Of a stretch of 64,000 bases of DNA, positions 2,432 through 20,238 are shown one piece after another. The notes beneath the pieces were generated by a model. The model was not told where the DNA came from, made no database searches, and saw only the letters and a program-made list of their open reading frames with translations. A program made the translations under genes and the position numbers. Position 1 is the first letter of the stretch. The number at the start of each line of letters is the position of its first letter. Source of the DNA: Acutalibacteraceae bacterium (GTDB lineage: Bacteria; Bacillota; Clostridia; Oscillospirales; Acutalibacteraceae); contig JAZNMU010000084.1 in assembly GCA_045579865.1 (NCBI GenBank), forward strand, positions 31,576-95,575, written 5' to 3'.

Positions 2432-2451
2432 AAAATGGGAGATTCGTGAAA

Positions 2452-3132
2452 ATGAAAGAATTATGTTGCTGTAATTGTCAAAGAAAATGGATAGTTTACA
2501 GTGAGGACTTGAATTACAACAAAGTTTGTCCTTTTTGTCTCCATGAAATTAAAAATAAAGCAAGTATTGAAAAAATAGAAACCTTTGAACAGCTAATTTT
2601 TAAAACCATAGAATTGCAAGGTACTGATGTTTTTAATAGCCCCAAAAGAATGAATGGAGTTATGATAGATTTTTCATCCAGGTTTCTAAAAGAAATTAAT
2701 ATATTTTTCAAAATATCTGATAAAGAGTTTAAGTTACTTAAAGATATATTTGATGGAGATTATAATGAAGCAGAGGAAAAACTACTTAAGCTTAAAAATT
2801 TATTGATAGATAGTGAAGGATTAGCAGAAAGTTGGGCAGAATTTATAAGAGAAAAGAATCTTATCGCTTTAAGTTTATATAAAGGTTTTGATAAAAACTG
2901 TTGTTCTTGGAATGTCTCTATTCAAGATTTAGTGTTTAGTAAGGATGAGGAAAACAATTTTTTTGTTAATGAAAAAGAAGACAACGATAATTATAGTGCC
3001 AATGATGACATAATAGTTGGGTATCATATTTTTTCTTTTCTGCATGGAAGACGCGTTAATATTCCACACGTATTTGATTCGCATTTGTTTAAATATATTG
3101 ATGCTTATGATTCGGAAAAAGTGGAAAAATAG
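2452..3132 (+). CDS. zinc-ribbon protein whose N-terminal module is paralogous to that of 435-2378
   Basis: GGGAG at 2437 then ATG 2452. CCCNC...CPFC zinc ribbon, followed by a helical module similar in pattern to residues ~30-120 of the previous protein. Ends in an A-run where the Sel1 frame takes over. Confidence 0.65.
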   Translation: MKELCCCNCQRKWIVYSEDLNYNKVCPFCLHEIKNKASIEKIETFEQLIFKTIELQGTDVFNSPKRMNGVMIDFSSRFLKEINIFFKISDKEFKLLKDIFDGDYNEAEEKLLKLKNLLIDSEGLAESWAEFIREKNLIALSLYKGFDKNCCSWNVSIQDLVFSKDEENNFFVNEKEDNDNYSANDDIIVGYHIFSFLHGRRVNIPHVFDSHLFKYIDAYDSEKVEK

Positions 3133-3530: not shown

Positions 3531-3585
3531 ATAATTACCACATTAAATATTTAGAGTACGATATACTGAAAATGAGGTGATAAGT

Positions 3586-4233
3586 TTGGATAAAACATAT
3601 GTTAGAGGCAATTTAGCCAAAAATCAATCTGCAATAAAAAGTAGCAGATATGGTAAAAGTGGAGAAACAACAAGAAAAACTAAACTATCATCAAAAAATT
3701 TCGACAAACTTATGCAACAAAGAGGTTTAAGCAAGAAAGATGCTTTGTCTTTGAAATCTTCTTTTGATAGAAGTAGTCCTATGCAGGTAAGACACGCAAA
3801 AAAAGGAGAACAATTTACAGTTGCTCACGGGACCTCAAATGCTTCAGGTATTTTTGTTTCAAAAGGTTCTCTTGGTAAAACTCCTGATAAAAGAATAAAC
3901 AAGGGTGCTTTACCAAATAGTAATTCTGCAAAATATGAAACAAAGGTTGCATTAGATAAAAATCAAAATCTTATATACGGAAAAATAGCACCTCAATCAA
4001 AATTTCAGAAAATGGATCCAAAACAAACACCGAGAAAAGGTGGCGGAACACAAGTAATAACTGATGGAGGATATAAAAAAGGAGCAATTAGAAATAACGA
4101 TACAAAATTTCCTGTTCCTGCTAAATCATCTGCTCCTACTGCTTCGCAAAAGTTTAGAGAAAGCATTGGAAAAACAAATACGAGTTCAAATAATAAAACG
4201 AGGAAATCGAAATCGAACTCTCGAGGAAGGTAA
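3586..4233 (+). CDS. basic protein with TNT (tuberculosis necrotizing toxin)-like NAD glycohydrolase motif pattern
   Basis: GAGGTGA then TTG 3586 (GTG 3577 is an alternative). The core HG..SG.F.S...R....ALP....Y...V......YGKIAP...GGGTQ resembles my recollection of the TNT/DUF4237 pattern (RYG..G.F.S...R.LP...Y..Y.V...G..AP.FGQ.GGG.Q). K/S/R-rich tails. Stop lies 8 nt before the kinase-STAND gene. Confidence 0.4.
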   Translation: MDKTYVRGNLAKNQSAIKSSRYGKSGETTRKTKLSSKNFDKLMQQRGLSKKDALSLKSSFDRSSPMQVRHAKKGEQFTVAHGTSNASGIFVSKGSLGKTPDKRINKGALPNSNSAKYETKVALDKNQNLIYGKIAPQSKFQKMDPKQTPRKGGGTQVITDGGYKKGAIRNNDTKFPVPAKSSAPTASQKFRESIGKTNTSSNNKTRKSKSNSRGR

Positions 4234-4241
4234 AGATACAT

Positions 4242-7200
4242 ATGAAACGTTTTCTTTCTGTTGGTGAAACAATTACGCTATTAGCATTTAACGAACAAAA
4301 AGATTTCTTAATTACAGAAGTTCTTGGTGTTGGTGGTAGTTGTATTGCATATAAGGTTAAATATTATGAAAATGAAAATATACCTCATATAGGTATTATA
4401 AAGGAGTATTGTCCTGCATTTTTAGAAGATGAAAATTTTGAAAGAATCGGAAATGAACTGAAAGTTTCTGAAAATTTCAAAGAAAAGTTTTTAGAGGGTT
4501 TATGTGAGTTTAAAAGAACATATAAATCTATTAATGAATACTTGTCTAATAATCTTTCTGCGGCAAATTATCATACAGTACAAATTGGTCTGTACGAAGG
4601 TAATAATACTGCATACACATTAACATCCTGTGATTATGGTATGAGTTACGACAAGATTGACAACGAAAGTTTGTTGTCAATCTGTAAAACTATGCTTTCT
4701 GTAACGAAAGCTGTTGAACTTTACCATAATGCAGGATTTTTACATTTAGATATTAAACCAAAAAATATATTGGTTCTGAATGATGTAACTGACTTGATTA
4801 AACTGTTTGATTTTGACAGTCTTACCTCTATTGAAAAATTAAAAAGAAGAGAAGTATATGGTGTTCCTGTACCGGAAGATTATTATGTTCCCGAATTAGA
4901 AAACTATGATATACGAAATATTGGTATTGAAACGGATGTTTTTGAAATAGGAGCAATGTTATTCTTAAAAGTCTTCAAAAGAGCTCCTGAAGTATCAGAT
5001 ATGTCATATGATTCAAAATATGATATAGATAAAAATGAATTATTTGTTGGTATTTCCCCTCCAGCAAAAAAAGAGTTTGTTGAATTATTAAGGAAAACTA
5101 TACAAATATCAAAAAGAAGCAGATATAAAACAACGAGAGAATTAAAATCAAAGTTTGAAAAAATTATATCTCTTATTAATGAAGATAAACCGTATCTTCT
5201 TGATTTACCAAAATGGCAGCCATCAAAGAATTGCATTGGAAGAAAGACTGAAATAAAAGAAATAAAAAGAAGACTTGATGAAGATGGTTATGTTTTCATA
5301 AAGGGTATTGGTGGGCTTGGAAAATCTGAAATTGCCAAATTGTTTGCCGAAAACTACAAGAATGAATATCACACAGTTCAGTTCTGCAAATTTTCAGATA
5401 GTCTTAAATCAGTCGTTGCAACAATGTCTATAAATGGTATAGACGAACAAAATTATGGCAATGCTGAAGAATTAATAAAAGAAAAAAATAAGGTTTTACA
5501 TTTATCTGATGATAAAACATTAATTATTGTTGATAACTTTAATGTTACATATGATGACTTTTTGCGTGACTTTTTACCATCAGATAATAAAAGTTTTAAA
5601 GTAATTTTTACAACGCGATGTACAATGGCGGCTGAATATTATGAATCTAAAACTTATGATTTACCAAAGCTCTCTATGGATGAATGTAAAGCATTGTTTT
5701 TTGCACATCTTGCAACTTCTTCGAATGGTGAAGAGGAAGTAATAGAAGAATTAATAAAGTTTGTAGATTATAATACCTTGATTATTGTTTTGATGGCGAT
5801 TACTATAAGAAAATCAGGATTTACTTTGAGTGAGATGCTTTCAAATCTGAAAGAACAGAAAATTAATAGCGTGGAAACCGAAATTTTTCACGAATATGAT
5901 TTTTCATCAGATGAAGTAAATGCATATAACAAAATATATGCTCACTTATCAACGATTTTCAGTATTTGTGGTTTAACAGAAATAAATAAAGAAGTATTAA
6001 AAAATGCAACACTTATTTCGTTAAATGGAATAGGTTTAGATGAGTTTATCAAACAATGTGGTTCTAGCAACATCAATCAAAATTCAGTTGATGATGTTGT
6101 TGATATGGGCTGGCTTAATAAAGATTCAAATGATATTATTTCAATGCATCCAATAATTTCTGATATGTTTTCGACAAACGAAGAATTATATAAAAAAGAA
6201 AGCTATTATAAGTTTGCCGAGCATTTAGAAGATTTCTGCAATCCGGATTATTGTCATTTCTCTATAGTTCTCAATAAACTTGCTTGCGCAAAGCATTTAG
6301 AAAGAAGATATACATTTGAAACTGATGAAAAAAAGGTGATTATAACTGTTAAGTTAGGACGAATGTATGAAAATATTTATCAGCCAAATGAAGCACGAAA
6401 ACATTTAAAAAGAGCATTGGCACTTGCAAAAGATTTAGGTTTAGATGCAGAAGTCATATATATATATAGCTTTTTGGGAAGTGTTGAAAAGGATTTTGGC
6501 ACATATAGGAAGGCCATAGACTATTATCAAAAGTGTATTTTTGAAGGCAAAAAACTTAAAAACAGGTTTTATTATGTTGTTGTCGAATCTATGATAGCCA
6601 TATCTGATTGTCATGAGAACAATAATGATAAGATAAAAGCATATAACTCTTATCTTGAGGCATTAAATTATTCAAAATGCTTTAAACTTTATGAGTATAT
6701 TCCTCAAATAGCTGACAGTTTAATTAAGTTATGTGAAGAGTTAGATTGGAAAGAAAAAGAACAAATTTATAGACGAGTTTTAAGTAAATATGGTTCTTTT
6801 GCTGAACCTTCTGAAGAAGATGTTGAATTTGATGAATTTTCAAAGAAAAGTGAAGAAGGAGATTATGAAGGTAGTCTGATTGCATACGAGAAAATATTGT
6901 CATCCCAAATAGAAGAACTTGGGGAAGATTCCCCAGTATACAAAGATTTGAAAAGAAATTTATGGGGGTTTTATGCAATAAACAAACAAAAAGAACAGGC
7001 ATTACATCTTTTGAGCGAAAACTTTGCATTTATCGAAAGTACTTACGGTGAAAATTCAATGGAAATGGCAAGAGAACTTTCTTCGGCATCAAATATAATG
7101 CTTGAACTTACAGAGTTTGAAAGTGCGGAAAAGTTTTCAAAAAGAGCCATCGAAATTTGTGAAGATTATGATGCTCAAGATGAATATTCGTATGTTGAAG

Positions 7201-8660
7201 CTGTCTTCGCACTTGCAAGGCTTTATCTTGTACAAGGTAAACACGAAGCTGCTTCAATGCTCGTAAAGAAAATTGATTTTTCAAGGTTTTCGGGAAATGA
7301 CTTTTTATCGGACATTATAACGGCTTGTGGTATGGTAATGTGTCAACTTAGTAAATTTGATGAGGTGGAGCCACTGTGCCAAGAAGTTTTGGATAAAAAA
7401 GGTATAGAAGATAAGTATAAGTATTTATCATATATTATCTTGGCAATGATATATGAACAAAAAGGCAAGTTTGACGAGGCTGAAAGATATGCTAATAGTG
7501 CAAAGGATAGTATAAGTGGCTTAAAAACTGAGCACATAAAAAAAGAGTGGTTGGTTGCTTACTATCGTTCAATTGCTAGAATTAAATTAAGGAAAGGTAA
7601 TCCCCAAGAGGCCATCTTGATTCTTTCTAACTTTATTGACAGTTTCAACGAGGAAGAAAAAGATAGTTTATTCTATTTGAATGGGGTTTATTCAGATCGA
7701 GGATTGTTCTATTTTTACTGTGACGATATTGAAAAGGCAACGTCAGATTTTAATAAGTGTGAGGAAATGCTTGTCAAAAATAATTTGCCGGATGATGCGT
7801 TTGCAGTTCTCTATAATAATATTGCAATGAATTATGAAAAGACAGGTCATTATGCAGAAGCAAAGAAATATCTTGAAAAAATAGTAAATGTAAATAAAAA
7901 TGTATTAAAGCCTAAATCATATTTTGATGCAATCGTTTGCAGTAATATTGGTTGGGTTGATTATAACTTGGGTAATATTGAGCAAGGACTTTGTTTGTTA
8001 AAGAACGCTGTTATTGCTTTGGAAAACCTTGGTATAATCGATACAACTGATTATTTCAAAATGAAGAATAATATAGCAATTGTGTATATCAGCCAAGAAA
8101 AATATCTAAACTCTTTTAACGAATATTCTGATATAAGAAATAGATATGATCCAATGACTGATTTTAACGGTGAAATGTCGATAAAAACCAATTTTGGTAT
8201 AGCCTTCTCACTGTTAAAACTTGATAGAGCAGAAGATGCTTATGATTTTTCTTTAGAAGAGCTGAAAAGATTTGAAACTTGGTTCGGCAAAACTTCTCCT
8301 ATAAGAATTAAAGCGATTCTTCAAATGGGGGGGTTATTTAGAGAGTTTGGCTATTCAGATTGTTATGATTTCTTTTTTCTCGCAGACGAGTTAATGGATG
8401 AATCCGGAGATTTTAATTCATTAAATAATGCCAAACTACTCAATTATATTGGTTTGTATTTTACAGATGAAAAGAAAGAACACGGTTTTGCAAAACTAAA
8501 ATTTGAAGAATCAAAGCAGCTTTTCGAAGAACTCAATGCCACTGATGATGAGATGTATCCTATTGTGGTGAAAAATATTGAATATGTAAGAGATTTAATT
8601 ATGGATGACCTTATCGGAAAAATGGCTCAGAGTATGATTGATGAAACACAGGAGGATTAG
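4242..8660 (+). CDS. Ser/Thr protein kinase - NB-ARC (STAND P-loop NTPase) - TPR repeat protein
   Basis: Kinase motifs: LGVGGSCIAYK (Gly loop and Lys38), HLDIKPKN (168-175), DFD (190-192), YYVPE. NB-ARC motifs: Walker A GIGGLGKS (355-362), Walker B LIIVDNF, KVIFTTR. About 750 aa of TPR-like helical repeats follow. Confidence 0.85.
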   Translation: MKRFLSVGETITLLAFNEQKDFLITEVLGVGGSCIAYKVKYYENENIPHIGIIKEYCPAFLEDENFERIGNELKVSENFKEKFLEGLCEFKRTYKSINEYLSNNLSAANYHTVQIGLYEGNNTAYTLTSCDYGMSYDKIDNESLLSICKTMLSVTKAVELYHNAGFLHLDIKPKNILVLNDVTDLIKLFDFDSLTSIEKLKRREVYGVPVPEDYYVPELENYDIRNIGIETDVFEIGAMLFLKVFKRAPEVSDMSYDSKYDIDKNELFVGISPPAKKEFVELLRKTIQISKRSRYKTTRELKSKFEKIISLINEDKPYLLDLPKWQPSKNCIGRKTEIKEIKRRLDEDGYVFIKGIGGLGKSEIAKLFAENYKNEYHTVQFCKFSDSLKSVVATMSINGIDEQNYGNAEELIKEKNKVLHLSDDKTLIIVDNFNVTYDDFLRDFLPSDNKSFKVIFTTRCTMAAEYYESKTYDLPKLSMDECKALFFAHLATSSNGEEEVIEELIKFVDYNTLIIVLMAITIRKSGFTLSEMLSNLKEQKINSVETEIFHEYDFSSDEVNAYNKIYAHLSTIFSICGLTEINKEVLKNATLISLNGIGLDEFIKQCGSSNINQNSVDDVVDMGWLNKDSNDIISMHPIISDMFSTNEELYKKESYYKFAEHLEDFCNPDYCHFSIVLNKLACAKHLERRYTFETDEKKVIITVKLGRMYENIYQPNEARKHLKRALALAKDLGLDAEVIYIYSFLGSVEKDFGTYRKAIDYYQKCIFEGKKLKNRFYYVVVESMIAISDCHENNNDKIKAYNSYLEALNYSKCFKLYEYIPQIADSLIKLCEELDWKEKEQIYRRVLSKYGSFAEPSEEDVEFDEFSKKSEEGDYEGSLIAYEKILSSQIEELGEDSPVYKDLKRNLWGFYAINKQKEQALHLLSENFAFIESTYGENSMEMARELSSASNIMLELTEFESAEKFSKRAIEICEDYDAQDEYSYVEAVFALARLYLVQGKHEAASMLVKKIDFSRFSGNDFLSDIITACGMVMCQLSKFDEVEPLCQEVLDKKGIEDKYKYLSYIILAMIYEQKGKFDEAERYANSAKDSISGLKTEHIKKEWLVAYYRSIARIKLRKGNPQEAILILSNFIDSFNEEEKDSLFYLNGVYSDRGLFYFYCDDIEKATSDFNKCEEMLVKNNLPDDAFAVLYNNIAMNYEKTGHYAEAKKYLEKIVNVNKNVLKPKSYFDAIVCSNIGWVDYNLGNIEQGLCLLKNAVIALENLGIIDTTDYFKMKNNIAIVYISQEKYLNSFNEYSDIRNRYDPMTDFNGEMSIKTNFGIAFSLLKLDRAEDAYDFSLEELKRFETWFGKTSPIRIKAILQMGGLFREFGYSDCYDFFFLADELMDESGDFNSLNNAKLLNYIGLYFTDEKKEHGFAKLKFEESKQLFEELNATDDEMYPIVVKNIEYVRDLIMDDLIGKMAQSMIDETQED

Positions 8661-8663
8661 AAG

Positions 8664-10070
8664 ATGAAAGATGGTTATACAGGTATTATGACCGAAAAAA
8701 TAAATGATTGGGGTCTTGACAAAATATATGAAATGGAAGATGACATATATGGACTTGAAAATAGGGTTCCTGAAATCATTGACTATCTAAAAGATATACG
8801 TTTTTCAATGCCGTTAGGTTTAGCCTTGAGAAGATACATTTGTGAACAGTATAGTAATGGCTTTGACACAGAAAAACAATGTTATAGTTTTACTTTACCT
8901 GAGAAGGTCATTTTTACAAAAGATCACACAAGCGAAGATTATAATATAGAAACCGATGATATTGCAGAGTATATAGACATATTTAACTATATAAATGCAA
9001 AGTCTAATACTGATGCAAATGGCAATCTCACTATAGATATACCAAAAGCTGAAATTAGGAGACAACTTCGTGCTACTACTGGATGCATCAGAAAGAAAAT
9101 GTTTGATTTGAGCTTTGCATTACATATGGATAGTGAATACACATCTAAGTTTTTAACAGATGTGTTGGCAGAGCAGACTTATAATTACAGAGAACCTAAG
9201 GAAATAATCGCATTATTCTGTCAATCAAATGAAGAGTTTAATAGTTATCAAAAGTATGATGAGCTGTGTCAATTGTTTGATGTTAGATCTAAAGATATAG
9301 TTAAAACAAAAGAAAAAAAAGAGAACTATACATCTTTTGCGAGAAGCACGGTTACACAAGAAATAAAAACAGAAGAAATGCTAATGGAGTTTCTTTTAGC
9401 CAACATATCAAATTTTTATAGCTATTCAGAAACTGCATATAATGAGTTTGTTTCTTTGTATGTTAAAGCGAGTTCGTCATTATTATCTTCAGAGAAGAAA
9501 ACAGAATTTGAAGGGAAAACGATAGAAGAACGAATTGCTATTATAAAGGAACAAATAAAGAACGATAATCTAATAAATCCGGAGCAGTTAGCAAAGGAAA
9601 TGCTTGCGTGTATTCCTAGAGCTACCACTGAAAGGATCAAGGGCGGCAAGAAAATTGTAAGCAACGATTTCATTAATATTTATAATGGTGAGGGCGGACA
9701 GGATAGCAAAAAGATTAAGACTACTGAACTGCCAAAAAGAATCACTATGAATCTTCCGGTCAGTGATAGGCTATGGGATTTGATTAGAAGAGAAAAAACA
9801 GTTGACAGAAAAGACATAGTATTTATGAAGTTTTATGTTTTTTCACTGTATTTGCAGGAAAAAGACGAATACTCTGCTGAAGATTATTTTATCTTTTTAG
9901 ATGAATGTAATGATCTTCTAATGAGGTGTGGCATGTCAAGGTTGTATCCCGGTAATAGGTTTGAAAACCTGATAATGCTGTCTCTTCTTGCCTCCAACCC
10001 GTTTGAAATGTTTGAGAATATTATTGAATTTTCTTTTATGAATGAACCTAAACCGGATACCGTAGAATAA
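8664..10070 (+). CDS. hypothetical 468-aa helical protein, operon partner of the kinase-STAND gene
   Basis: AGGAGGA RBS. ATG lies 3 nt after the upstream stop. I recognise no motif. Confidence 0.7.
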   Translation: MKDGYTGIMTEKINDWGLDKIYEMEDDIYGLENRVPEIIDYLKDIRFSMPLGLALRRYICEQYSNGFDTEKQCYSFTLPEKVIFTKDHTSEDYNIETDDIAEYIDIFNYINAKSNTDANGNLTIDIPKAEIRRQLRATTGCIRKKMFDLSFALHMDSEYTSKFLTDVLAEQTYNYREPKEIIALFCQSNEEFNSYQKYDELCQLFDVRSKDIVKTKEKKENYTSFARSTVTQEIKTEEMLMEFLLANISNFYSYSETAYNEFVSLYVKASSSLLSSEKKTEFEGKTIEERIAIIKEQIKNDNLINPEQLAKEMLACIPRATTERIKGGKKIVSNDFINIYNGEGGQDSKKIKTTELPKRITMNLPVSDRLWDLIRREKTVDRKDIVFMKFYVFSLYLQEKDEYSAEDYFIFLDECNDLLMRCGMSRLYPGNRFENLIMLSLLASNPFEMFENIIEFSFMNEPKPDTVE

Positions 10071-10133: not shown

Positions 10134-10601
10134 ATGGATAGTAAAATTTTACACAACATTAAAGACACACCATTTAATGAAAGAGAAACATTTAATAACG
10201 CAATTCTGCTTTTGTCAATGGTTAAAAGCGAGTATTACTATATAGTAGGGTTTTCAAGACCGGATAATAAAATAGAGATAGGCTTCGATTTTGAAGACAA
10301 AGCATACGGACAGATTTCTGAAACTGTTATAATGGACTTTAGTAGCAACTCGACAAGAATTTTGATGACTTCTCAATTGACAAATATAGTTTTTAAAGAA
10401 AAGAACAGAATTCCATTTCATCAAAAAGATAACTTCAAAATTAATAATGGTAATATTGTTTACGAGAGATTATTCAAAAAAGATGATGTTATTCCCGTAA
10501 GTATGGACAAATTAAACTTAATAATTTTGTCTGTAAAAAAGGATCTTGAAGAGTTTATAAAACAAAGTTTTGCATACATACTTACTCAAAGAAGGAAATG
10601 A
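10134..10601 (+). CDS. hypothetical 155-aa protein translationally coupled to the JAB gene
   Basis: GAAGAGGTG RBS. Its stop overlaps the next start (ATGA). It has no Cys and no C-terminal GG. Confidence 0.65.
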   Translation: MDSKILHNIKDTPFNERETFNNAILLLSMVKSEYYYIVGFSRPDNKIEIGFDFEDKAYGQISETVIMDFSSNSTRILMTSQLTNIVFKEKNRIPFHQKDNFKINNGNIVYERLFKKDDVIPVSMDKLNLIILSVKKDLEEFIKQSFAYILTQRRK

Positions 10602-11035
10602 CAATGAAAATATTGCAAAATGTTTATTTGAAAATACTGAATAGTTATCCTCTCCCTCCTCCTGAACAAGGAGGTATAATGGGTATAAAAAATAGCATAG
10701 TCTGTGAATATTATCACGATAATTCCCAAAATGCAACTGAAAGAGCTGTGTATGAGCCTGACATTAATGCTTTTAATCAAAGAATTGAAGAATGGGATAA
10801 GTACGGCATACAGTTTTCAGGCATTATTCATAGTCACTTGTTAGAACAAAACACATTATCGTCAGGAGATAAAGAATATATTAAACAGATATTCGATAAT
10901 CTACCTAAAGGTGTAGATGAATTATATTTTCCTATTATTATCCCTGAGACAAAACAGGTGTTCTCATTTGTTGCTAAAAGAAAAGATAAAGATGTAATCA
11001 TCCAACAAGATGAAATACATATAATGTTAGAATGA
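10598..11035 (+). CDS. JAB/MPN (JAMM) family metallopeptidase, minimal single-domain form
   Basis: Exact JAMM motif H78-S-H80-x7-S88-x2-D91 (IIHSHLLEQNTLSSGD), plus the upstream Glu in PPPEQGGIMG. The start may be the second ATG at 10604. Confidence 0.8.
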   Translation: MTMKILQNVYLKILNSYPLPPPEQGGIMGIKNSIVCEYYHDNSQNATERAVYEPDINAFNQRIEEWDKYGIQFSGIIHSHLLEQNTLSSGDKEYIKQIFDNLPKGVDELYFPIIIPETKQVFSFVAKRKDKDVIIQQDEIHIMLE

Positions 11036-11360: not shown

Positions 11361-11741
11361 ATGAATATTTGTGTAAGTTGTAAAGATTATTTTAAGGAAT
11401 CAAAAGAGGTACAAAAAGCTATTGTAAGTGGGGTGGAAACACTTTATGGACGGATTCAGAATTATGAAGAACAAAACATAGATTTTAATCGGATTTTCAA
11501 TGACGACAAGGTTAAATATGATAAACACGGTCAGTTTTATACTTTTAAGTTTCAGAAATCAAATATGCAGTTAAGAGTGCTTTATTCATATTTGATTATT
11601 GATTGTTCACCAGTAGTAATTATAGCTGATTTCTTTGTAAAAAAAAGAAATTCCAAAGACTATATCGGGAAATTCAATTCATTAAATAAGGTTAATCCTT
11701 TGGATTTGTATAGCAAATCTAAAGTTGTATATTCGATATAA
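11361..11741 (+). CDS. RelE/ParE-HigB (Gp49)-like toxin-fold protein
   Basis: FKFQKSNMQLRVLYSYLIIDCSPVVIIADFFVKKRNSKDYI matches the ...R.LY....(V/I)VI...F.KK....Y pattern of this superfamily. No adjacent HTH antitoxin. Confidence 0.45.
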   Translation: MNICVSCKDYFKESKEVQKAIVSGVETLYGRIQNYEEQNIDFNRIFNDDKVKYDKHGQFYTFKFQKSNMQLRVLYSYLIIDCSPVVIIADFFVKKRNSKDYIGKFNSLNKVNPLDLYSKSKVVYSI

Positions 11742-12056: not shown

Positions 12057-13154
12057 ATGAAAAAACAGGAAGAAAGAAGACTTAATATATTCAGAATCTT
12101 TTTTCAAACGGTACCCATCCTTTTTGCGTTTGGAATAATCATTGCATTTGAAGGCTATGATTTGTATTTTGCTGATTTTGATTTGTCTTTTGGATATGTA
12201 GGATCTTTTCTTGTTGCAATATTGGTTTGCTTTGTAATGCAGTTGTTTATAAACAGAAACCCTATGTTGAATAACACGAAATCAGGAATTGTTGTAGGTT
12301 CTATATTAACAATTGAACTTTTATTGTTTTTATTATTTGCACAATATCATTTATTGCTTACAGGAGTGTTTATTGTTGCAACAATATTATTTTCATCTTG
12401 GTTAACTGAAAAAATCATTTGTATTAATAAGGAAAAAAGAAAAGTTACCAAAAGATTAAAGAGATGGTGTATAAATCGTTCTCGTTCATTGCTTGCATAT
12501 GTGCTTTGTGTTGCATTGATGCTGCCTGCCGGAATAGGTTTCTATGAAGAATACTATAAGTATTCTTTGTCTTCTGAAGAGTGGGCAGCATTCGTTGAAT
12601 GGTTCAACGAAGATAGCGAGGAAGTGGAAAAAGAAGAAAAAGTAGTTATTCCACATGAGGATAAAATTGCTGACTTGCTTAAATGGGACAAGGTGAATGT
12701 TGCAGAAAAGGAAAGAGTAATAAGAAGTATTGCTCTTATTGAAAAAGAAGAGCTTGGAATAAGTAACGATGTTGAGATTACTGTATCAACTGAAAAAATG
12801 TCCGAGTACACTTGCGGTTATTACATAGATTCATCTAAAGAAATCTTCATTAACTATAAATATTTAAATGAAGGAAAGCTCGAAGATGTCTTGCAGACAA
12901 TTCTCCACGAAATGCATCACGCTTTCGTTCATTATACAGTTGAAAATATTGATTATGAATCTGAATTGGTGCAAGACAATTACTATTACAAGCAAGCACG
13001 AGAATGGAAGGAAAATACCGAAAACTACATATCTTCGAACTCAAATTATGATGAATATAAAAATCAACCGATTGAAGCTGATGCGAGAGCTTATGCTGAA
13101 GAAAAGGTCGAGTATTATTTGAAGTATATAGATGATAACTCGAGTGAAAATTAA
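12057..13154 (+). CDS. polytopic membrane protein with C-terminal HExxH metallopeptidase-like domain
   Basis: Several hydrophobic helices in the first ~165 aa. LQTILHEMHHAFVHY gives HExxH, and a downstream IEADARAYAEE could supply a third ligand. Confidence 0.6.
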   Translation: MKKQEERRLNIFRIFFQTVPILFAFGIIIAFEGYDLYFADFDLSFGYVGSFLVAILVCFVMQLFINRNPMLNNTKSGIVVGSILTIELLLFLLFAQYHLLLTGVFIVATILFSSWLTEKIICINKEKRKVTKRLKRWCINRSRSLLAYVLCVALMLPAGIGFYEEYYKYSLSSEEWAAFVEWFNEDSEEVEKEEKVVIPHEDKIADLLKWDKVNVAEKERVIRSIALIEKEELGISNDVEITVSTEKMSEYTCGYYIDSSKEIFINYKYLNEGKLEDVLQTILHEMHHAFVHYTVENIDYESELVQDNYYYKQAREWKENTENYISSNSNYDEYKNQPIEADARAYAEEKVEYYLKYIDDNSSEN

Positions 13155-13217
13155 TTTTAGTACATACACGATATGCATACCTGTTAAAAATCAAAAATCA
13201 TATAAACATCTTGCTTT

Positions 13218-13247
13218 GGGAGCCGTTTTTGGCTCCCTTTCTATTTT
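13218..13247 (+). terminator. rho-independent terminator
   Basis: GGGAGCC gttttt GGCTCCC followed by TTTCTATTTT. Confidence 0.7.
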
Positions 13248-13259
13248 GAAAAAGAGTTT

Positions 13260-13294
13260 CCACAACTGTTGGTTGAGTGTGATGTAGAATAAAG
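13260..13294 (+). promoter_or_regulatory. island promoter motif copy 2 (CCACAACT-N17-TAGAATAAAG)
   Basis: Same bipartite motif and spacing as copy 1. Upstream of 13337. Confidence 0.55.
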
Positions 13295-13336
13295 TTACAG
13301 GGTTGAGAGACCTAATAAAACGAAGGAGAAACAGTT

Positions 13337-13561
13337 ATGGAAATCTTTGAAAGACTTGACACAATAAGGGGAACGGTAATCGGATGTAATGAACATGGAT
13401 GCCGTGTCAGAGACGATGAAACAGGAAAAGTAGTTTTTTATTATGGAAACGGCTACAAAGGAGACAGAGTTCAACTTTCAATAAAAAGGATTGACCTTGA
13501 ACGTCAAAGAGTGACTTGTGTATTGGAGTCGGTTTTAGAATATGCTGATTATGTAGCTTGA
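13337..13561 (+). CDS. small S1/OB-fold-like protein (74 aa)
   Basis: GGAG RBS. The G.V....G..V........GD.V...I..ID pattern is reminiscent of S1-like domains. Confidence 0.5.
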   Translation: MEIFERLDTIRGTVIGCNEHGCRVRDDETGKVVFYYGNGYKGDRVQLSIKRIDLERQRVTCVLESVLEYADYVA

Positions 13562-13571
13562 TTAACAGTTT

Positions 13572-13606
13572 ACACAGTTTCACAGAGTCAATGCAGTACA
13601 ATAAAT
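13572..13606 (+). promoter_or_regulatory. island promoter motif copy 3 (ACACAGTT-N17-TACAATAAAT)
   Basis: Same spacing. Drives micropeptide ORF 1. Confidence 0.5.
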
Positions 13607-13633
13607 TCATCAAATAAAAAAGGAGAAAACGAA

Positions 13634-13714
13634 ATGGAGTATTCGAGAGACCGGCCTTTCAACAAGGTGAAACATTTGATTAACCAAATCCACAATTTGA
13701 CATTTAGTGTATAG
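13634..13714 (+). CDS. micropeptide 1, MEYSRDRPFNKVKHLINQIHNLTFSV (26 aa)
   Basis: AAAGGAGAA RBS 7 nt upstream. Shares the SRDRPF core and flanking nucleotides with micropeptide 2. Below the ORF-track size cutoff. Confidence 0.4.
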   Translation: MEYSRDRPFNKVKHLINQIHNLTFSV

Positions 13715-13724
13715 TACAATAAAG
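13690..13724 (+). promoter_or_regulatory. island promoter motif copy 4 (CCACAATT-N17-TACAATAAAG)
   Basis: Same spacing. The -35-like box lies inside the 3' end of micropeptide ORF 1. Confidence 0.5.
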
Positions 13725-13753
13725 ACAACGAAGAGAACAAAGGAGAACAAGCT

Positions 13754-13816
13754 ATGAAACATTCAAGAGACCGGCCTTTTAGGAGACACAAATACAACAA
13801 CACTTCAAGAGAGTGA
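13754..13816 (+). CDS. micropeptide 2, MKHSRDRPFRRHKYNNTSRE (20 aa)
   Basis: AAAGGAGAA RBS. Conserved ATTCrAGAGACCGGCCTTT block as in ORF 1. Confidence 0.4.
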   Translation: MKHSRDRPFRRHKYNNTSRE

Positions 13817-13841
13817 ATAAAAAGAAAGTGAGGATAATGAA

Positions 13842-13907
13842 ATGCTTTGGAAAATTATTTCAACAACAGTATATTTCATATTTGCATTCAATAATTACTC
13901 TTATTAA
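13842..13907 (+). CDS. hydrophobic peptide MLWKIISTTVYFIFAFNNYSY (21 aa)
   Basis: GTGAGGA RBS upstream. An alternative overlapping frame starts at ATG 13837 (51 aa). Confidence 0.25.
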   Translation: MLWKIISTTVYFIFAFNNYSY

Positions 13908-13924
13908 GAAAGGAGATACTGATT

Positions 13925-14017
13925 ATGTGGGGAGCAATTTGTTCTTTTGCAATTGGATGGGCGTTAAAACACGCTGTTTCAGGTACATATAATTACTTTT
14001 ATGATATGTATCATTAA
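13925..14017 (+). CDS. hydrophobic aromatic-rich peptide MWGAICSFAIGWALKHAVSGTYNYFYDMYH (30 aa)
   Basis: AAAGGAG RBS 8 nt upstream of the ATG. A perfect hairpin follows. Confidence 0.4.
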   Translation: MWGAICSFAIGWALKHAVSGTYNYFYDMYH

Positions 14018-14026
14018 TTTAATTAA

Positions 14027-14059
14027 GATTATGTTGCCGAGTTATTCGGCAACATAATC
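14027..14059. terminator. perfect 14-bp hairpin (GATTATGTTGCCGA / TCGGCAACATAATC)
   Basis: Seen directly. No U-run on the plus strand, so it may be a terminator or an RNA-stabilising element. Confidence 0.5.
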
Positions 14060-14106
14060 AAACCCCAAAAAACTTATATCTATAATAAATTAAGGAGTTT
14101 TTACTA

Positions 14107-15048
14107 ATGAAAAAGAATATCACTAAAGTTTTATCAATCGTTCTTGCAATTATCACAGTTTTTTCAACAAGTGCAATCGGTTTGACTGCTTCAGCAGCAA
14201 GCAATACAAGTTATTCAAGCTATAATGCTCCTGAGAATTCAGGTGACTATGCATATTGGAACGGTTCAAAGGTTGTAAAGTCAAGCAGCACAACAAAGGA
14301 CGAAATTCGTTGGATTCAGGCGGCAATCAATAACTGTATTGCTAACGAAGGACTTAAAACATCATATATAGTAGTTGATGGTTCGTTCGGTCCGGGTAGC
14401 AAGACAGCAACAATTGCATTTCAGAAGGCTGCAGGCTTAACAGCGGACGGTTCCTTTGGTCCTGCTAGCATCAAGAAAATGAAGAGCATCTTAAGTGATG
14501 GTAAGAAAAATTCGCTCAATCCTGTCTCTACAACAAATAACGGAAGCTCAAAAACACTTTCAATCAACTGGAATTTAATCAAAACGACAGGCAAACAGGG
14601 TTCAGGTGAAAAGAGCTGTCTTTGCAGAGCACTTGCTTACAGTAGAGATATTATTGATGGTTCTGCACACAAGTGGACAGAATATAGCGAAGGCTATCTC
14701 AAATCAGCAGGTAGATACAGTTACACTGCTGTTTGCTCAAAGGCTAGTTACACAAAGAAAACAAGTACGAGTCAAGCTACTGTTTTCAAAGCAGTTTATG
14801 ACAATATAAATAATGGCAAGCCTGTTGTTATCAATGTAGATGATGGTGCAGGAAAACGTTCCACAGGATGTCATTATGTAGCAGTTGTTGGATATAAGAA
14901 TGTTACAGATTCGTCTAAACTTTCTGCTTCAAACTTCTTAATCATTGATTCTGTTGGAAATGGTGGTTATACAACTGAAAACCTTGGAAGTTTGGGATAT
15001 TATCTTCTTAAGAATTCAAGCGGAAGATATACCTACTATGTTGACTAA
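14107..15048 (+). CDS. secreted protein: signal peptide, peptidoglycan-binding domain, and C-terminal papain-like (C39-like) cysteine peptidase domain
   Basis: Signal peptide MKKNITKVLSIVLAIITVFSTSAIGLTASA. Duplicated VDGSFGP..K.A...FQKAAGL motif (PG_binding_1 type). Candidate Cys/His pairs in GEKSCLCRALAYS and GCHYVAVVGY. Confidence 0.6.
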   Translation: MKKNITKVLSIVLAIITVFSTSAIGLTASAASNTSYSSYNAPENSGDYAYWNGSKVVKSSSTTKDEIRWIQAAINNCIANEGLKTSYIVVDGSFGPGSKTATIAFQKAAGLTADGSFGPASIKKMKSILSDGKKNSLNPVSTTNNGSSKTLSINWNLIKTTGKQGSGEKSCLCRALAYSRDIIDGSAHKWTEYSEGYLKSAGRYSYTAVCSKASYTKKTSTSQATVFKAVYDNINNGKPVVINVDDGAGKRSTGCHYVAVVGYKNVTDSSKLSASNFLIIDSVGNGGYTTENLGSLGYYLLKNSSGRYTYYVD

Positions 15049-15064
15049 TATTTACAAAAACTTA

Positions 15065-15101
15065 GTGTTGCTCGTAAGAGATTACGGGCAACACATTTTT
15101 T
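15065..15101 (+). terminator. rho-independent terminator
   Basis: GTGTTGCTCGT / ACGGGCAACAC stem followed by TTTTTT. Confidence 0.75.
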
Positions 15102-15113
15102 AAATAACGAAAA

Positions 15114-15148
15114 CCACAGCTTGAATTCTTTGCCATTCTATAATAAAG
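15114..15148 (+). promoter_or_regulatory. island promoter motif copy 5 (CCACAGCT-N17-TATAATAAAG)
   Basis: Same spacing. Upstream of ATG 15175. Confidence 0.6.
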
Positions 15149-15174
15149 AAAACAAAGAAAAGGAGTTAATAAAA

Positions 15175-16308
15175 ATGAACAAATGGACAATTGAAAAGAT
15201 ACAGGAGTTCTATACATATCTTAATGAATATTTCGAGCTTTCAGTTAATCCTGAAATCGAGATAGGTGAGAAAAACAGATTTCCTATGCAGTGGCATGAA
15301 GGAAAGCTACTTTTTATACCGGATTTCTTCAATGATAATGAACTAAAAGAAGATGTAAGAATGAACTTGTTAATTCTTATGTATAGTGCATTTTATCAGA
15401 CAAAGCATAATGATAATCACATTGGCATACACCCTATGTTTATGACAAAAGGAATTTGCAATGAATTAGGTATATCTTTCTTATCAGATGAACAAATTGA
15501 AAATAATCTGCGAATTGTCAGAAGAAAGATATATAAAGAAGTTGAAGATTCCAGTTTCTTTTTTGTTGGTGCACCACTTAGAGAAAGCGCTTTTGTAAGA
15601 TATGAAGTTGTACGAATTGAAAAGAAAGAAACGGATATTTTTGTAACTGTTAAGCTGACAGGTTGTAGAACAGGAGATTCTGATAAAGTTTTTACAGAAG
15701 AACTTTATAAAAGATGCTGTTTGTATGAACATATTGATGATGTTAAGGTTGATATGAGAAAGAACCTTATAGTTGTTTCCGGCCCTTCGGGTGTAGGTAA
15801 AACTACAGTTGTGAATGAAGTAATGAAACAGTATCCGGAGCTTAATAAGACGGTTTCAGTTACTACACGAAAGCCTCGAAAAAATGAAGTAAACGGAAAA
15901 GATTATTACTTCATTTCCATAGATGAATTCTATGACTATCAATTTAACAGAAAACTTCTTGAGCATAACATCTATAATCATGAACATTATGGAACCCTTC
16001 TTTCAGAAATCAATAGGTATCCGACTGATAAACCACTTGTATTGGTAATTGATGTCAGCGGTAGAAGGAGTGTTTTAAGACATTTTCCGCTTTCAACAAC
16101 TATTTTTATTCAGTCTCCATCAACAGATGAATTGAGAAAACGAATTGAAGATAGAGGTGAAAATTCTGAAGATGAAATTCTTGAACGAATTGAAACTGCA
16201 ATTAAAGAAATGGAAGAAACACGATATTACGATTTTGTTGTAATGAATGAAGATGTAAAACAGTGTGCAGATGAAATTTCTAAAATCATCAGAGGAAATG
16301 TTAAATAA
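15175..16308 (+). CDS. fusion protein: unknown ~205-aa N-terminal domain plus guanylate kinase-like domain
   Basis: AAGGAG RBS then ATG 15175. The ORF-track start 15121 lies inside the promoter motif. GPSGVGKTT P-loop, SVTTRKPRKNEVNGKDYYF, HYGT and IDVSG are Gmk family motifs. Confidence 0.7.
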   Translation: MNKWTIEKIQEFYTYLNEYFELSVNPEIEIGEKNRFPMQWHEGKLLFIPDFFNDNELKEDVRMNLLILMYSAFYQTKHNDNHIGIHPMFMTKGICNELGISFLSDEQIENNLRIVRRKIYKEVEDSSFFFVGAPLRESAFVRYEVVRIEKKETDIFVTVKLTGCRTGDSDKVFTEELYKRCCLYEHIDDVKVDMRKNLIVVSGPSGVGKTTVVNEVMKQYPELNKTVSVTTRKPRKNEVNGKDYYFISIDEFYDYQFNRKLLEHNIYNHEHYGTLLSEINRYPTDKPLVLVIDVSGRRSVLRHFPLSTTIFIQSPSTDELRKRIEDRGENSEDEILERIETAIKEMEETRYYDFVVMNEDVKQCADEISKIIRGNVK

Positions 16309-16321
16309 GGAGAAAAAGACA

Positions 16322-17041
16322 ATGAAATATGTATGTTCTGATTTACACGGTTTTTCTATTGAAAAGTTTAAATTGATGCTTGATAGGGTTAGCTTTAATG
16401 ACTCTGATTTTTTATGGGTATTAGGCGATGTTATTGATAGAGGTCCTGATGGTATAAAAATACTGAAATGGCTTATGTCTCAGCCAAATGCTCAACTCAT
16501 ACTTGGCAATCACGAGGCTATGCTTCTCGCTTGCGATTTCTTATTTGAAGAAATTACAGAAGATAGTATCGCAAATTTAACTGGTACAAAACTTAACACA
16601 TATGCTACTTGGGTTTCTAATAGTGGTCAGTCAACATTAAATGCTCTTTCGGCAATGAGAAATAATGAAATTAAATACATATTGGAGTATTTACGAGAAG
16701 CACCTTTGCATGAAACTGTTACGGTAAATGACAGGGACTTTATTTTGACTCATAGTGGTCTTGGTTCATTTAAAATCGACAAGAAGCTTTCTGAATATTC
16801 CAGTGTTGACTTGCTTTGGAATAGACCTAACCTAAATAGGGAGTATTTTGATGATGTAACCGTTATATTCGGGCATACACCAACCGTTTACTATGGTGAG
16901 AACTTTAAGGGTAAGGCAATAAAAACAAAAACATGGATAGATGTTGATGTGGGTGCCGGATTGGGATTGAATCCTATGCTGTTGCGTTTGGACGATTTGA
17001 AAGAGTTTTACTTTGATAAGAATATGGAAATCATTGAATAA
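16322..17041 (+). CDS. PPP-family metallophosphoesterase (lambda/PrpA-type Ser/Thr protein phosphatase or ApaH-like)
   Basis: DLHG, GDVIDRGPDG and GNHE motifs in the canonical order. AAGGAG RBS then ATG 16322. Confidence 0.75.
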   Translation: MKYVCSDLHGFSIEKFKLMLDRVSFNDSDFLWVLGDVIDRGPDGIKILKWLMSQPNAQLILGNHEAMLLACDFLFEEITEDSIANLTGTKLNTYATWVSNSGQSTLNALSAMRNNEIKYILEYLREAPLHETVTVNDRDFILTHSGLGSFKIDKKLSEYSSVDLLWNRPNLNREYFDDVTVIFGHTPTVYYGENFKGKAIKTKTWIDVDVGAGLGLNPMLLRLDDLKEFYFDKNMEIIE

Positions 17042-17733: not shown

Positions 17734-18090
17734 TTAAATAAAGATAAGTTCTCTAATGATAATTTCTCTTGCCCTTGATTCTATATTTTGTAATTGCCGC
17801 ACCCACTCCAATTGATTTTCTTCCTTGAATTGCTCGGTTACACCTTCCGCGGTTTTTATTTGCTCGACGAGAGTGTTGAACATATGCTGAGCTTGGGTGT
17901 CGATTTGGGCGCAGTGTTGGTAGAGCTTGCCCTGGGTTAGGAGAGTTGCGAAAAGGACGGGGTTGTGTTTTTGCAAGTGATCTTTATACATCATACCCCA
18001 TTTTCCGAGGTGGATGGCTGTTTCTTCAGGTGGGATTGTGAGGTTTGGTATCAAATAATTGTTGACCTGTCTGTATGTAATATTTGCCAT
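17734..18090 (-). CDS. tnpV: TnpV-family transposon-associated protein
   Basis: ITYRQVNNYLIPNLTIPPEE...GKWGMMY...LLTQGKLYQH...W matches the TnpV family of clostridial transposons as I recall it. Local GC is visibly higher than the rest of the island. Confidence 0.65.
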   Translation of the reverse strand: MANITYRQVNNYLIPNLTIPPEETAIHLGKWGMMYKDHLQKHNPVLFATLLTQGKLYQHCAQIDTQAQHMFNTLVEQIKTAEGVTEQFKEENQLEWVRQLQNIESRAREIIIRELIFI

Positions 18091-18095: not shown

Positions 18096-18374
18096 TTATC
18101 CTTTCTTGTTGTCGATAAAAGTGTCGTATGTGAATCTTGCTCCGAGTCTGAAGCCGACGGTGAAACTATCTGCGTTGCAGAGACTTGAAAATTTAATGTA
18201 GGTTGCTACATAATCGGTAAAAAGCTCCCTATACTTGTCATCGAAGAGTGATGTCAAGTGATCTTCTTTGCTGGCAAGCTCTCTGAGGCTCTTTTTTACC
18301 TTTGCCGTCAGGTTGGTAGTGCACTCCTGCGGTTCGATGTTTCCATAGTAGAAATCTTCAATAAAGTCAGACAT
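18096..18374 (-). CDS. hypothetical protein commonly paired with TnpV in Firmicutes mobile elements
   Basis: ORF lies 5 nt upstream of tnpV. FYYGNIEPQE...DSFTVGFRLGARF pattern. Confidence 0.55.
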   Translation of the reverse strand: MSDFIEDFYYGNIEPQECTTNLTAKVKKSLRELASKEDHLTSLFDDKYRELFTDYVATYIKFSSLCNADSFTVGFRLGARFTYDTFIDNKKG

Positions 18375-18635: not shown

Positions 18636-19163
18636 TTAATTTTTGATTGTCCATTTTTTCCATGCCTGTAATAAATCATCAATGTTTTCTTTAACATAAT
18701 TAATCGCTGTTTTAATTTTTTTAGGGTTTTTAAAATCACCCGTAATTGTATAATCATTTAAGGATATACTGATTGTTTTACCACTATACGAAGCGTGAAC
18801 ATGAGGTTGATACATATGATTTTTTTCGTTTGTATGGAAAAAGAACATTATACCATCCACTTCATCATAGTTTACAGCATTGTTGAGGGCAACCACTTCA
18901 GAATATAAAACAGTTATTTTAGCTTCATCCAGAACAATAAATTTTTCAAAAAGAAAGATATCATTGCCTTTACAAATGTATAAGCGCCCTTTGGTGTTAT
19001 CGAATGCGTGGTTTGATTTATTTAATGTATTTACTATTTTGGGGAGTATTGTTTCAGCCGTATTATTAAGATTATATGGGATTTCTGCAAGTTTAATTTT
19101 ATGAACATTATTTATATAAATTAAGGTTGCAAAACATTGCATGCTATTTTTCAAAAGAATCAC
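18636..19163 (-). CDS. DUF4160-like protein with an N-terminal extension
   Basis: MFFFHTNEKNHMYQPHVHASYSGKTISISL resembles the DUF4160 core. The true start may be the internal Met. Confidence 0.45.
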   Translation of the reverse strand: MILLKNSMQCFATLIYINNVHKIKLAEIPYNLNNTAETILPKIVNTLNKSNHAFDNTKGRLYICKGNDIFLFEKFIVLDEAKITVLYSEVVALNNAVNYDEVDGIMFFFHTNEKNHMYQPHVHASYSGKTISISLNDYTITGDFKNPKKIKTAINYVKENIDDLLQAWKKWTIKN

Positions 19164-19304: not shown

Positions 19305-19652
19305 TGGTGGAGATGGCGGTAATCGAAACCGCGTCCGAAAATCCATTCACACAACTTTCTCCGGGTGCTGTCAGTCTTTTAACATTCCCTCAGTCTCACG
19401 CCGAATGACAGGCTTAAAACCTCAGTATCCTCTGATGCGTGACGGCATACGAGGATGCTCTGCCGTGCACGTTCACTGCTGATCGACGCCTTCAGTTAAG
19501 CCGCAGTACTCTTAACCAAGACGGGCCGCTTAAGCAGCCTTTAAAACTGTATTGTTGTCAGTTATTTTTAAATGTGTGACCTTTTAAAGCGATTGCCACA
19601 GCGCTACCCGCTTATCGTGCTTCAAAACCCCCGTCGAAATCCTTTCATCCCC
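19305..19652 (-). ncRNA. ssrA: tmRNA (transfer-messenger RNA)
   Basis: Minus strand reads 5' GGGGATGAAAGGATTTCGACGGGGG ... GGACGCGGTTTCGATTACCGCCATCTCCACCA 3'. Probable tag reading frame GAC AAC AAT ACA GTT TTA AAG GCT GCT TAA (…DNNTVLKAA). smpB is adjacent. Confidence 0.9.
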
Positions 19653-20187: not shown

Positions 20188-20218
20188 ACAAGGCGCCACC
20201 TTTCTTTCATTAATTCGG

Positions 20219-20238
20219 AATGCGGAATGCGAAATTCG
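20219..20238. repeat. 20-nt repeat AATGCGGAATGCGAAATTCG (left copy)
   Basis: Perfect reverse complement of 20807-20826. Embedded in a GAATGCG-rich palindromic stretch. Confidence 0.8.

Follow-up and report, generated by a model that had tools for sequence, protein, structure and literature searches.

Here we describe a gene pair in a window of 64,000 nucleotides (nt) from an Acutalibacteraceae bacterium (assembly GCA_045579865.1, contig JAZNMU010000084.1, positions 31,576-95,575, forward strand). The first gene (4242..8660, + strand) encodes a STAND protein of 1472 amino acids (aa), in which a Ser/Thr kinase, an NB-ARC NTPase and a TPR array are joined. The second gene (8664..10070, + strand) begins 3 nt downstream and encodes an orphan protein of 468 aa, referred to here as the partner because it adjoins the kinase-STAND gene across loci. 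The kinase-STAND gene starts with ATG and lies exactly where an initial annotation of this DNA had placed it. The probability that a frame of 1472 codons stays open by chance at 30% GC is ~1e-53, and >120 full-length homologues were found. The initial annotation recognized this gene, but overlooked the linked partner, a Ser/Thr phosphatase and a JAB peptidase.

The Hanks-type Ser/Thr kinase domain occupies aa 26-304 (4317..5153, + strand), where Pfam Pkinase (PF00069) scores 52.3 bits against a cut-off of 31.7, and it was also recognized in alignments, in a structural model and by Foldseek. It is followed by the NB-ARC NTPase and winged helix at aa 335-660 (5244..6221, + strand), identified by Pfam NB-ARC (PF00931, aa 335-506, 37.0 bits, cut-off 23.5), by invariant residues, and by Foldseek and phmmer. 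The C-terminal ~790 aa (aa 680-1472; 6279..8657, + strand) form the TPR array, the presumed sensor, for which the initial annotation had estimated ~750 aa; Pfam matches to TPR_12, TPR_10, TPR_2 and TPR_MalT are spread over ~aa 700-1270. The array is the fastest-diverging part of the protein, with a mean identity of 0.37 compared to 0.53 for the NB-ARC and 0.58 for the kinase, and its central part is missing from blastn alignments of the window gene with loci L005 and L008. The architecture alone is already annotated in databases as 'NB-ARC domain-containing protein'.

The full-length homologues (~1460-1500 aa, 37-93% identity) were found in metagenome bins of Ruminococcus, Acutalibacteraceae and other Oscillospirales. 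In a scan of one genome per species, relatives were found in 409 genomes, and among the matches listed nearly all belong to Clostridia (Oscillospirales, Lachnospirales and Clostridium tertium). They fall into three groups: the window's own clade of ~1470 aa (the close clade), a distant kinase clade of 900-1400 aa, and proteins of ~780 aa that have only the NB-ARC/TPR part in common. The kinase and NB-ARC of the distant clade are 25-37% identical to those of the window protein, and the TPR region is different. Tandem paralogues were found at loci L023, L048, L072 and L077.

Within the kinase domain, we located the motifs GVGGSC (aa 29-34), HLDIKPKN (aa 168-175), DFD (aa 190-192) and VPE (aa 216-218). 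Residues G29-S33, K54, H168/D170/K172/N175, D190, P217-E218, D232 and R294 are invariant in 24 close homologues, and the equivalents of these catalytic residues are invariant in 30 distant homologues. Loss of such residues in homologues, named beforehand in the initial annotation as a point against a defence role, was not seen even at 21-36% identity. The same annotation was right about the intact Gly loop, HLDIKPKN and DFD, but it mistook Lys38 for the catalytic lysine. According to the alignments and the AlphaFold model, K38 is unconserved and lies on strand beta2, while the catalytic lysine is the invariant K54 (IIK54E) on beta3. The model, which covers aa 1-680 (predicted local distance difference test score, pLDDT, 82.4), has a bilobal kinase fold, and its kinase half resembles PknB, PknG, EGFR and CLK1 in Foldseek searches (E about 1e-9). 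The predicted alphaC helix (aa 77-103) contains E78, E81, E85 and E89.

The NB-ARC motifs quoted in the initial annotation were all found, in a domain whose profile score exceeds the Pfam cut-off: GIGGLGKS at aa 355-362, LIIVDNF at aa 427-433 and FTTR at aa 456-459; an MHD-like SMHP lies at aa 634-637. The Walker A residues G357/G358/G360/K361/S362, the sensor-1 residues T457/T458/R459 and the MHD-type H636 are invariant in both kinase clades. The Walker B motif reads LIIVD431-N432 and is not the canonical hhhhDD/DE; its 'DN' does not vary in either kinase clade or in the TIR-bearing one. DN is a signature of these clades, and the motif suggests that the NB-ARC may bind ATP yet hydrolyse it poorly. 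The NB-ARC half of the model matches the plant NLR resistosomes wheat G10, NRC4, Roq1, ZAR1 and NRC1 in Foldseek, and a phmmer search of PDB sequences returned Sr35 and Roq1 alone, both weakly.

A homologue of the partner adjoins most kinase-bearing relatives for which flanking DNA is available, with a gap of ~0-120 bp in most loci. Close-clade loci have it downstream, after 0-60 bp; distant-clade loci have it upstream, mostly at 20-120 bp, and C. tertium has it in divergent orientation. In contrast, none of the 19 TIR-NB-ARC-TPR (kinase-less) relatives, which belong to one NB-ARC lineage with the window protein, has it as a neighbour. The presence of the partner thus tracks the kinase domain and not the NTPase, as would be expected if it served the kinase specifically as substrate, effector or regulator. 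Judging from this pattern of gene neighbours, the partner is a probable substrate or effector. The minimal conserved unit consists of two genes, the kinase-NB-ARC-TPR gene and the orphan partner gene (~380-590 aa). The same pair was found on the plasmids pRUMAL01 of Ruminococcus albus 7 (RUMAL_RS17560 and RUMAL_RS17555; hhalign probability 100%, E 3.8e-41) and pCY186 of Butyrivibrio proteoclasticus B316 (BPR_RS18980 and BPR_RS18975; probability 99.6% in profile comparison).

The partner is more conserved than the STAND protein, with 53-57% identity where the latter has 40-45%. An exhaustive profile search identified 925 representative clusters of the partner family, nearly all of them standalone proteins of 380-500 aa. 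We found no match for the partner in Pfam, NCBIfam, PHROGs, PADLOC or PDB sequence profiles, and no function emerged from recurrent weak Pfam matches sought over 51 diverged members. Its AlphaFold model is mostly helical (pLDDT 73, core above 84) and had no Foldseek match in the PDB. A disordered loop with the invariant sequence 'NGExGQ..TTxLPK' was considered as a universal phospho-acceptor and ruled out, because only close-clade partners have this insertion. In a very prevalent gut species (L082-L084), an IS110-family transposase (8443-9735) is inserted between the kinase-STAND gene and the partner gene, which are 1.65 kb apart there; this insertion may uncouple their expression.

An N-terminal TIR_2 domain is present in 12/19 of the kinase-less relatives (~780 aa), which share the NB-ARC motifs GGIGKSE(I/L)AK and IIDNF at ~27-33% identity. 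The NB-ARC of the distant kinase clade has 33% identity to that of the TIR group compared to 26% to that of the window's clade, indicating that kinase and TIR were swapped within one NB-ARC lineage. TIR- and kinase-bearing proteins also interleave in a neighbor-joining tree of the NB-ARC, a rough tree with short internal branches and no bootstrap that was used for this interleaving only. The proposal of the initial annotation that the kinase holds the effector position is thus supported, as the closest kinase-less NB-ARC relatives bear TIR at that place. The TIR-NB-ARC-TPR family itself (~780 aa, L064-L081) occurs in Lachnospiraceae/Oscillospiraceae metagenome-assembled genomes and in Mediterraneibacter agrestimuris, with tandem pairs at L072 and L077. 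Its genes are often near large serine recombinases, and these proteins look like candidate bacterial 'TNL-like' proteins.

The neighbourhood of the distant clade was examined with PADLOC on 143 neighbour open reading frames (ORFs) from 25 loci. The neighbours include AbiLi (5.6e-93), AbiLii, AbiEi (2.3e-61), SoFic and PARIS AriA, as well as reverse transcriptases (among them DRT UG17), Cas1, a type I restriction enzyme with specificity subunits, and toxin-antitoxin (TA) genes. Large serine recombinases are present in 10 loci of the distant and TIR groups. The genomic location of the pair varies between genomes, and PIN/Phd, BrxL and ThiF+JAB genes surround the copy on the R. albus plasmid. In seven distant-clade loci (L027, L031, L036, L041, L044, L049 and L056), a recurrent gene follows the kinase-STAND gene at a distance of a few kb and is read from the other strand. 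It encodes a protein of ~468 aa whose C-terminal kinase-like domain has the degenerate catalytic loop 'HRSLSPSSF'; this protein may be a pseudokinase accessory.

The effector position of the kinase is supported by the TIR/kinase exchange, the graded divergence, the tandem paralogues and the distant-clade contexts. We propose that the pair is an NLR-like conflict module whose output would be phosphorylation, probably of the partner, and whose target is most likely phages or mobile elements; we hold this explanation to be evenly poised between right and wrong. Catalytic residues preserved in both kinase clades, the linkage to the partner, the low-GC island at tmRNA that holds the window copy, and the toxin/immunity pair, DO-GTPase2 and transglutaminase genes upstream in a 93%-identical relative speak for it as well. 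Several observations weigh against it. PADLOC on 150 neighbour ORFs of the close clade gave generic kinase, JAB and radical-SAM similarity only, with no classical defence genes. The window's clade also occupies an extensive block of conserved synteny, whereas defence islands more typically shuffle their genes. The defence genes beside the distant clade are raw matches, with neither a genome background nor per-locus counts. The kinase-STAND and partner genes are essentially absent from known phage genomes in tblastn searches, and plain tblastn did not detect the partner on plasmids. No PADLOC v2 STAND, Avs or NLR model matched the window protein at E<=0.01, where only kinase and generic TPR models were returned. 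Within the proteins themselves, none of the alphaC glutamates is invariant among the 24 aligned close homologues, and the partner has no recognizable effector chemistry, its sole conserved Thr-rich loop being limited to the close clade.

The kinase-STAND/partner pair stands at the head of the syntenic block. A conserved accessory protein of 155 aa (10134..10601, + strand) is encoded downstream of the partner in 11-12 close-clade loci, and had no family match and no PDB match. The next gene (10598..11035, + strand) encodes a JAB/MPN metallopeptidase of 145 aa (Pfam Prok-JAB, E 2.5e-4; PADLOC JAB) with an intact JAMM motif, HSHx7SxxD, at aa 78-91; it co-occurs in 7-8 close-clade loci, and its product has no match in the PDB. 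In R. albus 7 pRUMAL01 (L087, 13828-16833), a ubiquitin-like conjugation cassette, made up of a ThiF-family E1, a Mov34/JAB gene and a hypothetical gene, lies ~3 kb from the pair. As the window's clade has a JAB gene too, this association may be more than chance. Another conserved accessory protein, of 126 aa (11361..11741, + strand), has 56-59% identical copies in 5-6 close-clade loci and is also found at L082, L085 and L086.

The rest of the block (12057..16308, + strand) contains, according to Pfam, a transmembrane (TM) plus SprT-like protease, small ORFs, a secreted peptidoglycan-binding/C39-like peptidase and a guanylate-kinase fusion. The gene order of the block is the same in L085 and L086, and the PG_binding/C39 and Metallophos genes are also present in L082-84; a functional link of the genes at 12057..16308 to the kinase-STAND gene is tentative. 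Two tiny paralogous ORFs, MEYSRDRPFNKVKHLINQIHNLTFSV (13634-13714, + strand) and MKHSRDRPFRRHKYNNTSRE (13754-13816, + strand), each with its own Shine-Dalgarno-like sequence, sit in an otherwise 'empty' 950-bp stretch of the block. At the corresponding place in L082-84, small ORFs precede radical-SAM and methyltransferase genes, so the tiny ORFs could be peptide precursors or small toxins. The guanylate-kinase fusion (15121-16308, + strand) joins a guanylate kinase domain (aa 214-391, E 5e-37) to an unassigned N-terminus of ~210 aa. The fusion also occurs in L086. In the window, the last 44 nt of its gene are shared with the phosphatase gene, counted from the predicted GTG start of the latter.

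This phosphatase gene (16265..17041, + strand) encodes a PPP-family Ser/Thr phosphatase of the lambda/NinI type, identified by Pfam Metallophos, PHROG and PDB matches. Its motifs DLH26, GDVIDRG54 and GNHE81 are intact, and it matches the PHROG NinI-like phosphatase (3.6e-42) and lambda phosphatase 1g5b over its full length. It co-occurs in 5-6 close-clade loci and is confined to the close clade. We consider it a candidate reset or antidote for the kinase.

The main rival explanation follows from this block. The protein would then be a non-immune Ser/Thr kinase switch, reset by the phosphatase, that controls a neighbouring envelope/cytoskeletal cluster (tubulin-like, DO-GTPase, vWA and transglutaminase genes, the peptidoglycan-binding peptidase, and radical-SAM genes resembling those for ribosomally synthesized and post-translationally modified peptides), and the partner would be its dedicated substrate or adaptor. 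A close clade embedded among signalling and envelope genes and free of classical defence genes speaks for such a switch, and kinase and phosphatase pairs are typical of reversible signalling. For one prevalent gut species, moreover, 492 blocks of the sequence collection list a partner-family gene, the contigs reaching 1.7 Mb. Furthermore, a survey of 589 STAND clades shows defence proteins intermingled with many regulators that have no defence role (Lee et al. 2026; PMC13581612). We nevertheless think this explanation rather unlikely, because the pair occurs without the block in the distant clade and on plasmids, beside recombinases, Abi, restriction-modification (R-M) and TA genes. Its variable location, the compositionally foreign island that holds the window copy, a swappable upstream flank, and sister proteins carrying TIR, which is typical of immune effectors, all argue in the same direction.

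The island comprises the first ~19 kb of the window. Positions 1-~19300 have ~30% GC, compared to ~44% for the remainder, and the low-GC region ends at the 3' end of the transfer-messenger RNA (tmRNA) gene (19305-19652, - strand), which is adjoined by smpB (19720-20241, - strand). At the junction we found TnpV (17734-18090), DUF6809 (18096-18374) and DUF4160 (18636-19163). The stretch resembles an island that was acquired horizontally at ssrA. No integrase was seen in the part of the island within the window, and no attachment-site repeat of the tmRNA 3' end is visible in the window because the left end of the island lies outside it. A phage origin of the island was considered and is unsupported: among 50,697 phage records searched with tblastn, the only matches were a pair of unannotated 4-kb faecal fragments (25% identity).

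Another rival explanation is a TA-like addiction module of mobile elements. Here the kinase would be a toxin restrained by the partner and/or the phosphatase, and the module would chiefly stabilise islands and plasmids instead of sensing invaders. The copies on megaplasmids, the proximity to serine recombinases, TnpV, TraG and ParAB, and the tight coupling of the two genes agree with this explanation. It has a precedent in the kinase-kinase-phosphatase module KKP, for which both TA-like behaviour and defence activity are reported (PMC11341870). However, an NB-ARC and TPR apparatus of ~1100 aa would be superfluous for a TA toxin, the phosphatase is missing outside the close clade, and a partner of ~400-470 aa that is better conserved than the STAND protein is unlike the small labile antitoxins. 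A TA-like module is therefore improbable.

DNA homology with a 93%-identical relative begins 8 bp before the start codon of the kinase-STAND gene. Upstream of this point, that relative has an FtsK_SpoIIIE/DUF87 ATPase, a transglutaminase, a DO-GTPase2, a WHH/Colicin-DNase toxin with SUKH immunity, and an APH-like kinase, and the window instead has zinc-ribbon/TM-repeat and Sel1 proteins. The upstream flank is a swappable cassette. In the window it includes a 652-aa protein (420-2378, + strand) with an N-terminal zinc ribbon, a TM helix and four internal repeats of ~95 aa, and a 228-aa protein (2446-3132, + strand) that shares the zinc ribbon and the following helical domain with it; homologues of both were found only in L005 and L017. 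A very basic, Ser/Thr/Lys-rich protein of 218 aa (3577-4233, + strand) is encoded by a gene that ends 8 bp before the kinase-STAND gene begins. This protein matched no family, and L005 alone has a conserved copy (68% identity). When the window protein is compared with its 92-93%-identical relatives P0001 and P0002, 28-40 of the 104-119 substitutions fall within aa 1-100, the kinase N-lobe (window positions 4242-4541). As this cluster adjoins the break in upstream synteny, it suggests a recombination junction within the 5' end of the gene.

The genes upstream of the kinase-STAND gene in the 93%-identical relative bear on a further explanation, in which the pair regulates or assists a locus of inter-bacterial antagonism or secretion, that is, a polymorphic-toxin/immunity cluster with an FtsK/SpoIIIE-type ATPase. 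The ATPase, the toxin and the immunity gene stand directly upstream of the kinase-STAND gene there, and SUKH, RCC1, MORN and Sel1 proteins recur nearby. Since DNA homology with this relative starts at the kinase-STAND gene, the toxin cassette is a variable neighbour outside the unit. Moreover, the visible part of the window has no FtsK, toxin or immunity genes, and the distant clade lacks such genes as well. We regard this explanation as very improbable.

The neighbours of other relatives include triads of vWA, PP2C and kinase genes, Tubulin_2, radical-SAM/methyltransferase genes, TraG, dynamin, and RCC1 or MORN proteins. Related assemblages were predicted by Kaur, Burroughs, Iyer & Aravind (2020) as 'conflict systems' built around DO-GTPase/GAP1-N2, tubulin, vWA and kinase-PP2C genes (PMC7159879). 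In that work, STAND NTPases and kinases are effector-type components, with kinase effectors in the vWA-MoxR and GAP1-N2 systems, and we did not find the kinase-STAND/partner pair described in the passages searched (PMC7159879). Relatives of the window's clade adjoin DO-GTPase2, Tubulin_2, vWA+PP2C+kinase triads and transglutaminase genes, which resembles these systems. However, the pair also occurs without DO-GTPase, tubulin or vWA genes. DO-GTPase2 and Tubulin_2 were found only in the relatives L085 and L082-84, and positions 1-19 kb of the window, which begins inside the island, contain no DO-GTPase/GAP1 core genes.

Known bacterial STAND/Avs proteins kill or arrest the cell directly through nucleases, proteases, SIR2 or TIR domains. 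The window protein has their three-part layout of an N-terminal enzymatic effector, a STAND NTPase and a long TPR-like sensor (Gao 2022; PMC13581612). It also resembles them in its fastest-evolving sensor, in an exchangeable effector (TIR or kinase), and in relatives that lie near defence genes and on mobile elements. It differs in having a protein kinase as effector and a separate partner gene beside it. The likeness to Avs proteins suggested in the initial annotation therefore holds for the layout with its exchangeable effector, but the PADLOC models and the close-clade neighbours gave it no support, and no Avs structure was among the top 50 Foldseek matches of the model. Kinase effectors are not mentioned in the main text of the 2026 STAND survey (PMC13581612), and in our searches of the literature we found no described kinase-effector STAND defence system or kinase-STAND/partner pair.

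The best structural and sequence matches of the NB-ARC are plant NLRs (ZAR1, NRC4, Roq1, Sr35 and wheat G10), with which it shares the P-loop, the TTR sensor-1 and the MHD-type histidine. In contrast to them, the window protein has TPR and not leucine-rich repeats, hhhhDN and not hhhhDD, a kinase output and a bacterial host, and GLPL is replaced by (N/H)T(L/M) in its lineage. The sister TIR-NB-ARC-TPR group of Clostridia mirrors the plant TNLs. These sisters share the NB-ARC lineage, the TPR-type C-terminus and the bacterial groups with the window protein, but they are ~780 aa long, carry TIR in place of the kinase and lack the partner gene.

A Hanks-type kinase is the executing enzyme in several kinase-based anti-phage systems, including Stk2, PD-T4-6, Mokosh MkoA, MADS Mad6 and KKP, the last of which also has a linked phosphatase. 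Stk2 is reportedly an anti-phage defence kinase (Depardieu 2016). None of these systems has its kinase linked with a STAND switch plus TPR sensor, or with the partner family. PADLOC kinase models matched the C-lobe of the window protein (MkoA 8.8e-16, mad6 3.4e-12, PD-T4-6 1.5e-10), but they have no curated thresholds and span only aa ~140-325 (PD-T4-6 ~148-317), which amounts to generic kinase similarity.

PknK, AfsR of Streptomyces and MalT of E. coli likewise use a STAND NTPase with a TPR-like region as a ligand-controlled switch, and M. tuberculosis PknK also has an N-terminal Ser/Thr kinase. The initial annotation had named a grouping of this NB-ARC clade with AfsR/PknK-type regulators as evidence against a defence role. 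We found no helix-turn-helix or SARP DNA-binding output domain among the Pfam/NCBIfam matches of the window protein, TPR_MalT reached 36.8 bits, under its cut-off of 45, whereas NB-ARC passed its own, and the nearest relatives are TIR-STAND proteins. The genomic context points the same way, as relatives lie beside serine recombinases, Abi, R-M, DRT, PARIS and TA genes. The window gene is set apart from these regulators by its mobility, its linked partner and its TIR-bearing sisters, a separation drawn from domain content, relatives and genomic context.

The system stands out as an NLR-like variant by its partner, by the exchange of TIR and kinase, and by its linked JAB and phosphatase genes. 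If the pair is indeed an NLR-like conflict module, the fast-evolving TPR array would bind the trigger, and the NB-ARC would then exchange its nucleotide and oligomerise. Oligomerisation would gather the N-terminal kinase domains so that they activate one another. The active kinase would phosphorylate the co-encoded partner and possibly other proteins, and the partner would execute or relay the response. In the window's clade, the linked lambda-type Ser/Thr phosphatase may reverse stray phosphorylation. More tentatively, and with some doubt on our side, the family may represent a new class of bacterial NLR, with a resistosome-like oligomer, a kinase activated by induced proximity, an orphan-fold partner as executioner or relay, and the phosphatase as a safety catch. 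By analogy, such a class would be a prokaryotic counterpart of NLR-kinase signalling in animals and plants (NOD1/2-RIPK2, NLR-tandem-kinase pairs).

Gut and rumen Clostridia, a group in which few defence systems have been put to experiment, commonly carry the module. As the pair is present on plasmids of the cultured rumen strains R. albus 7 and B. proteoclasticus B316, the hypothesis is directly testable. If it is true, a STAND protein that phosphorylates a dedicated partner of unknown fold would add a signalling layer to bacterial NLR-like immunity, and an orphan family of 925 representative clusters would gain a function. If the system is a regulator instead, it would still define a conserved kinase-substrate pair in abundant gut bacteria.

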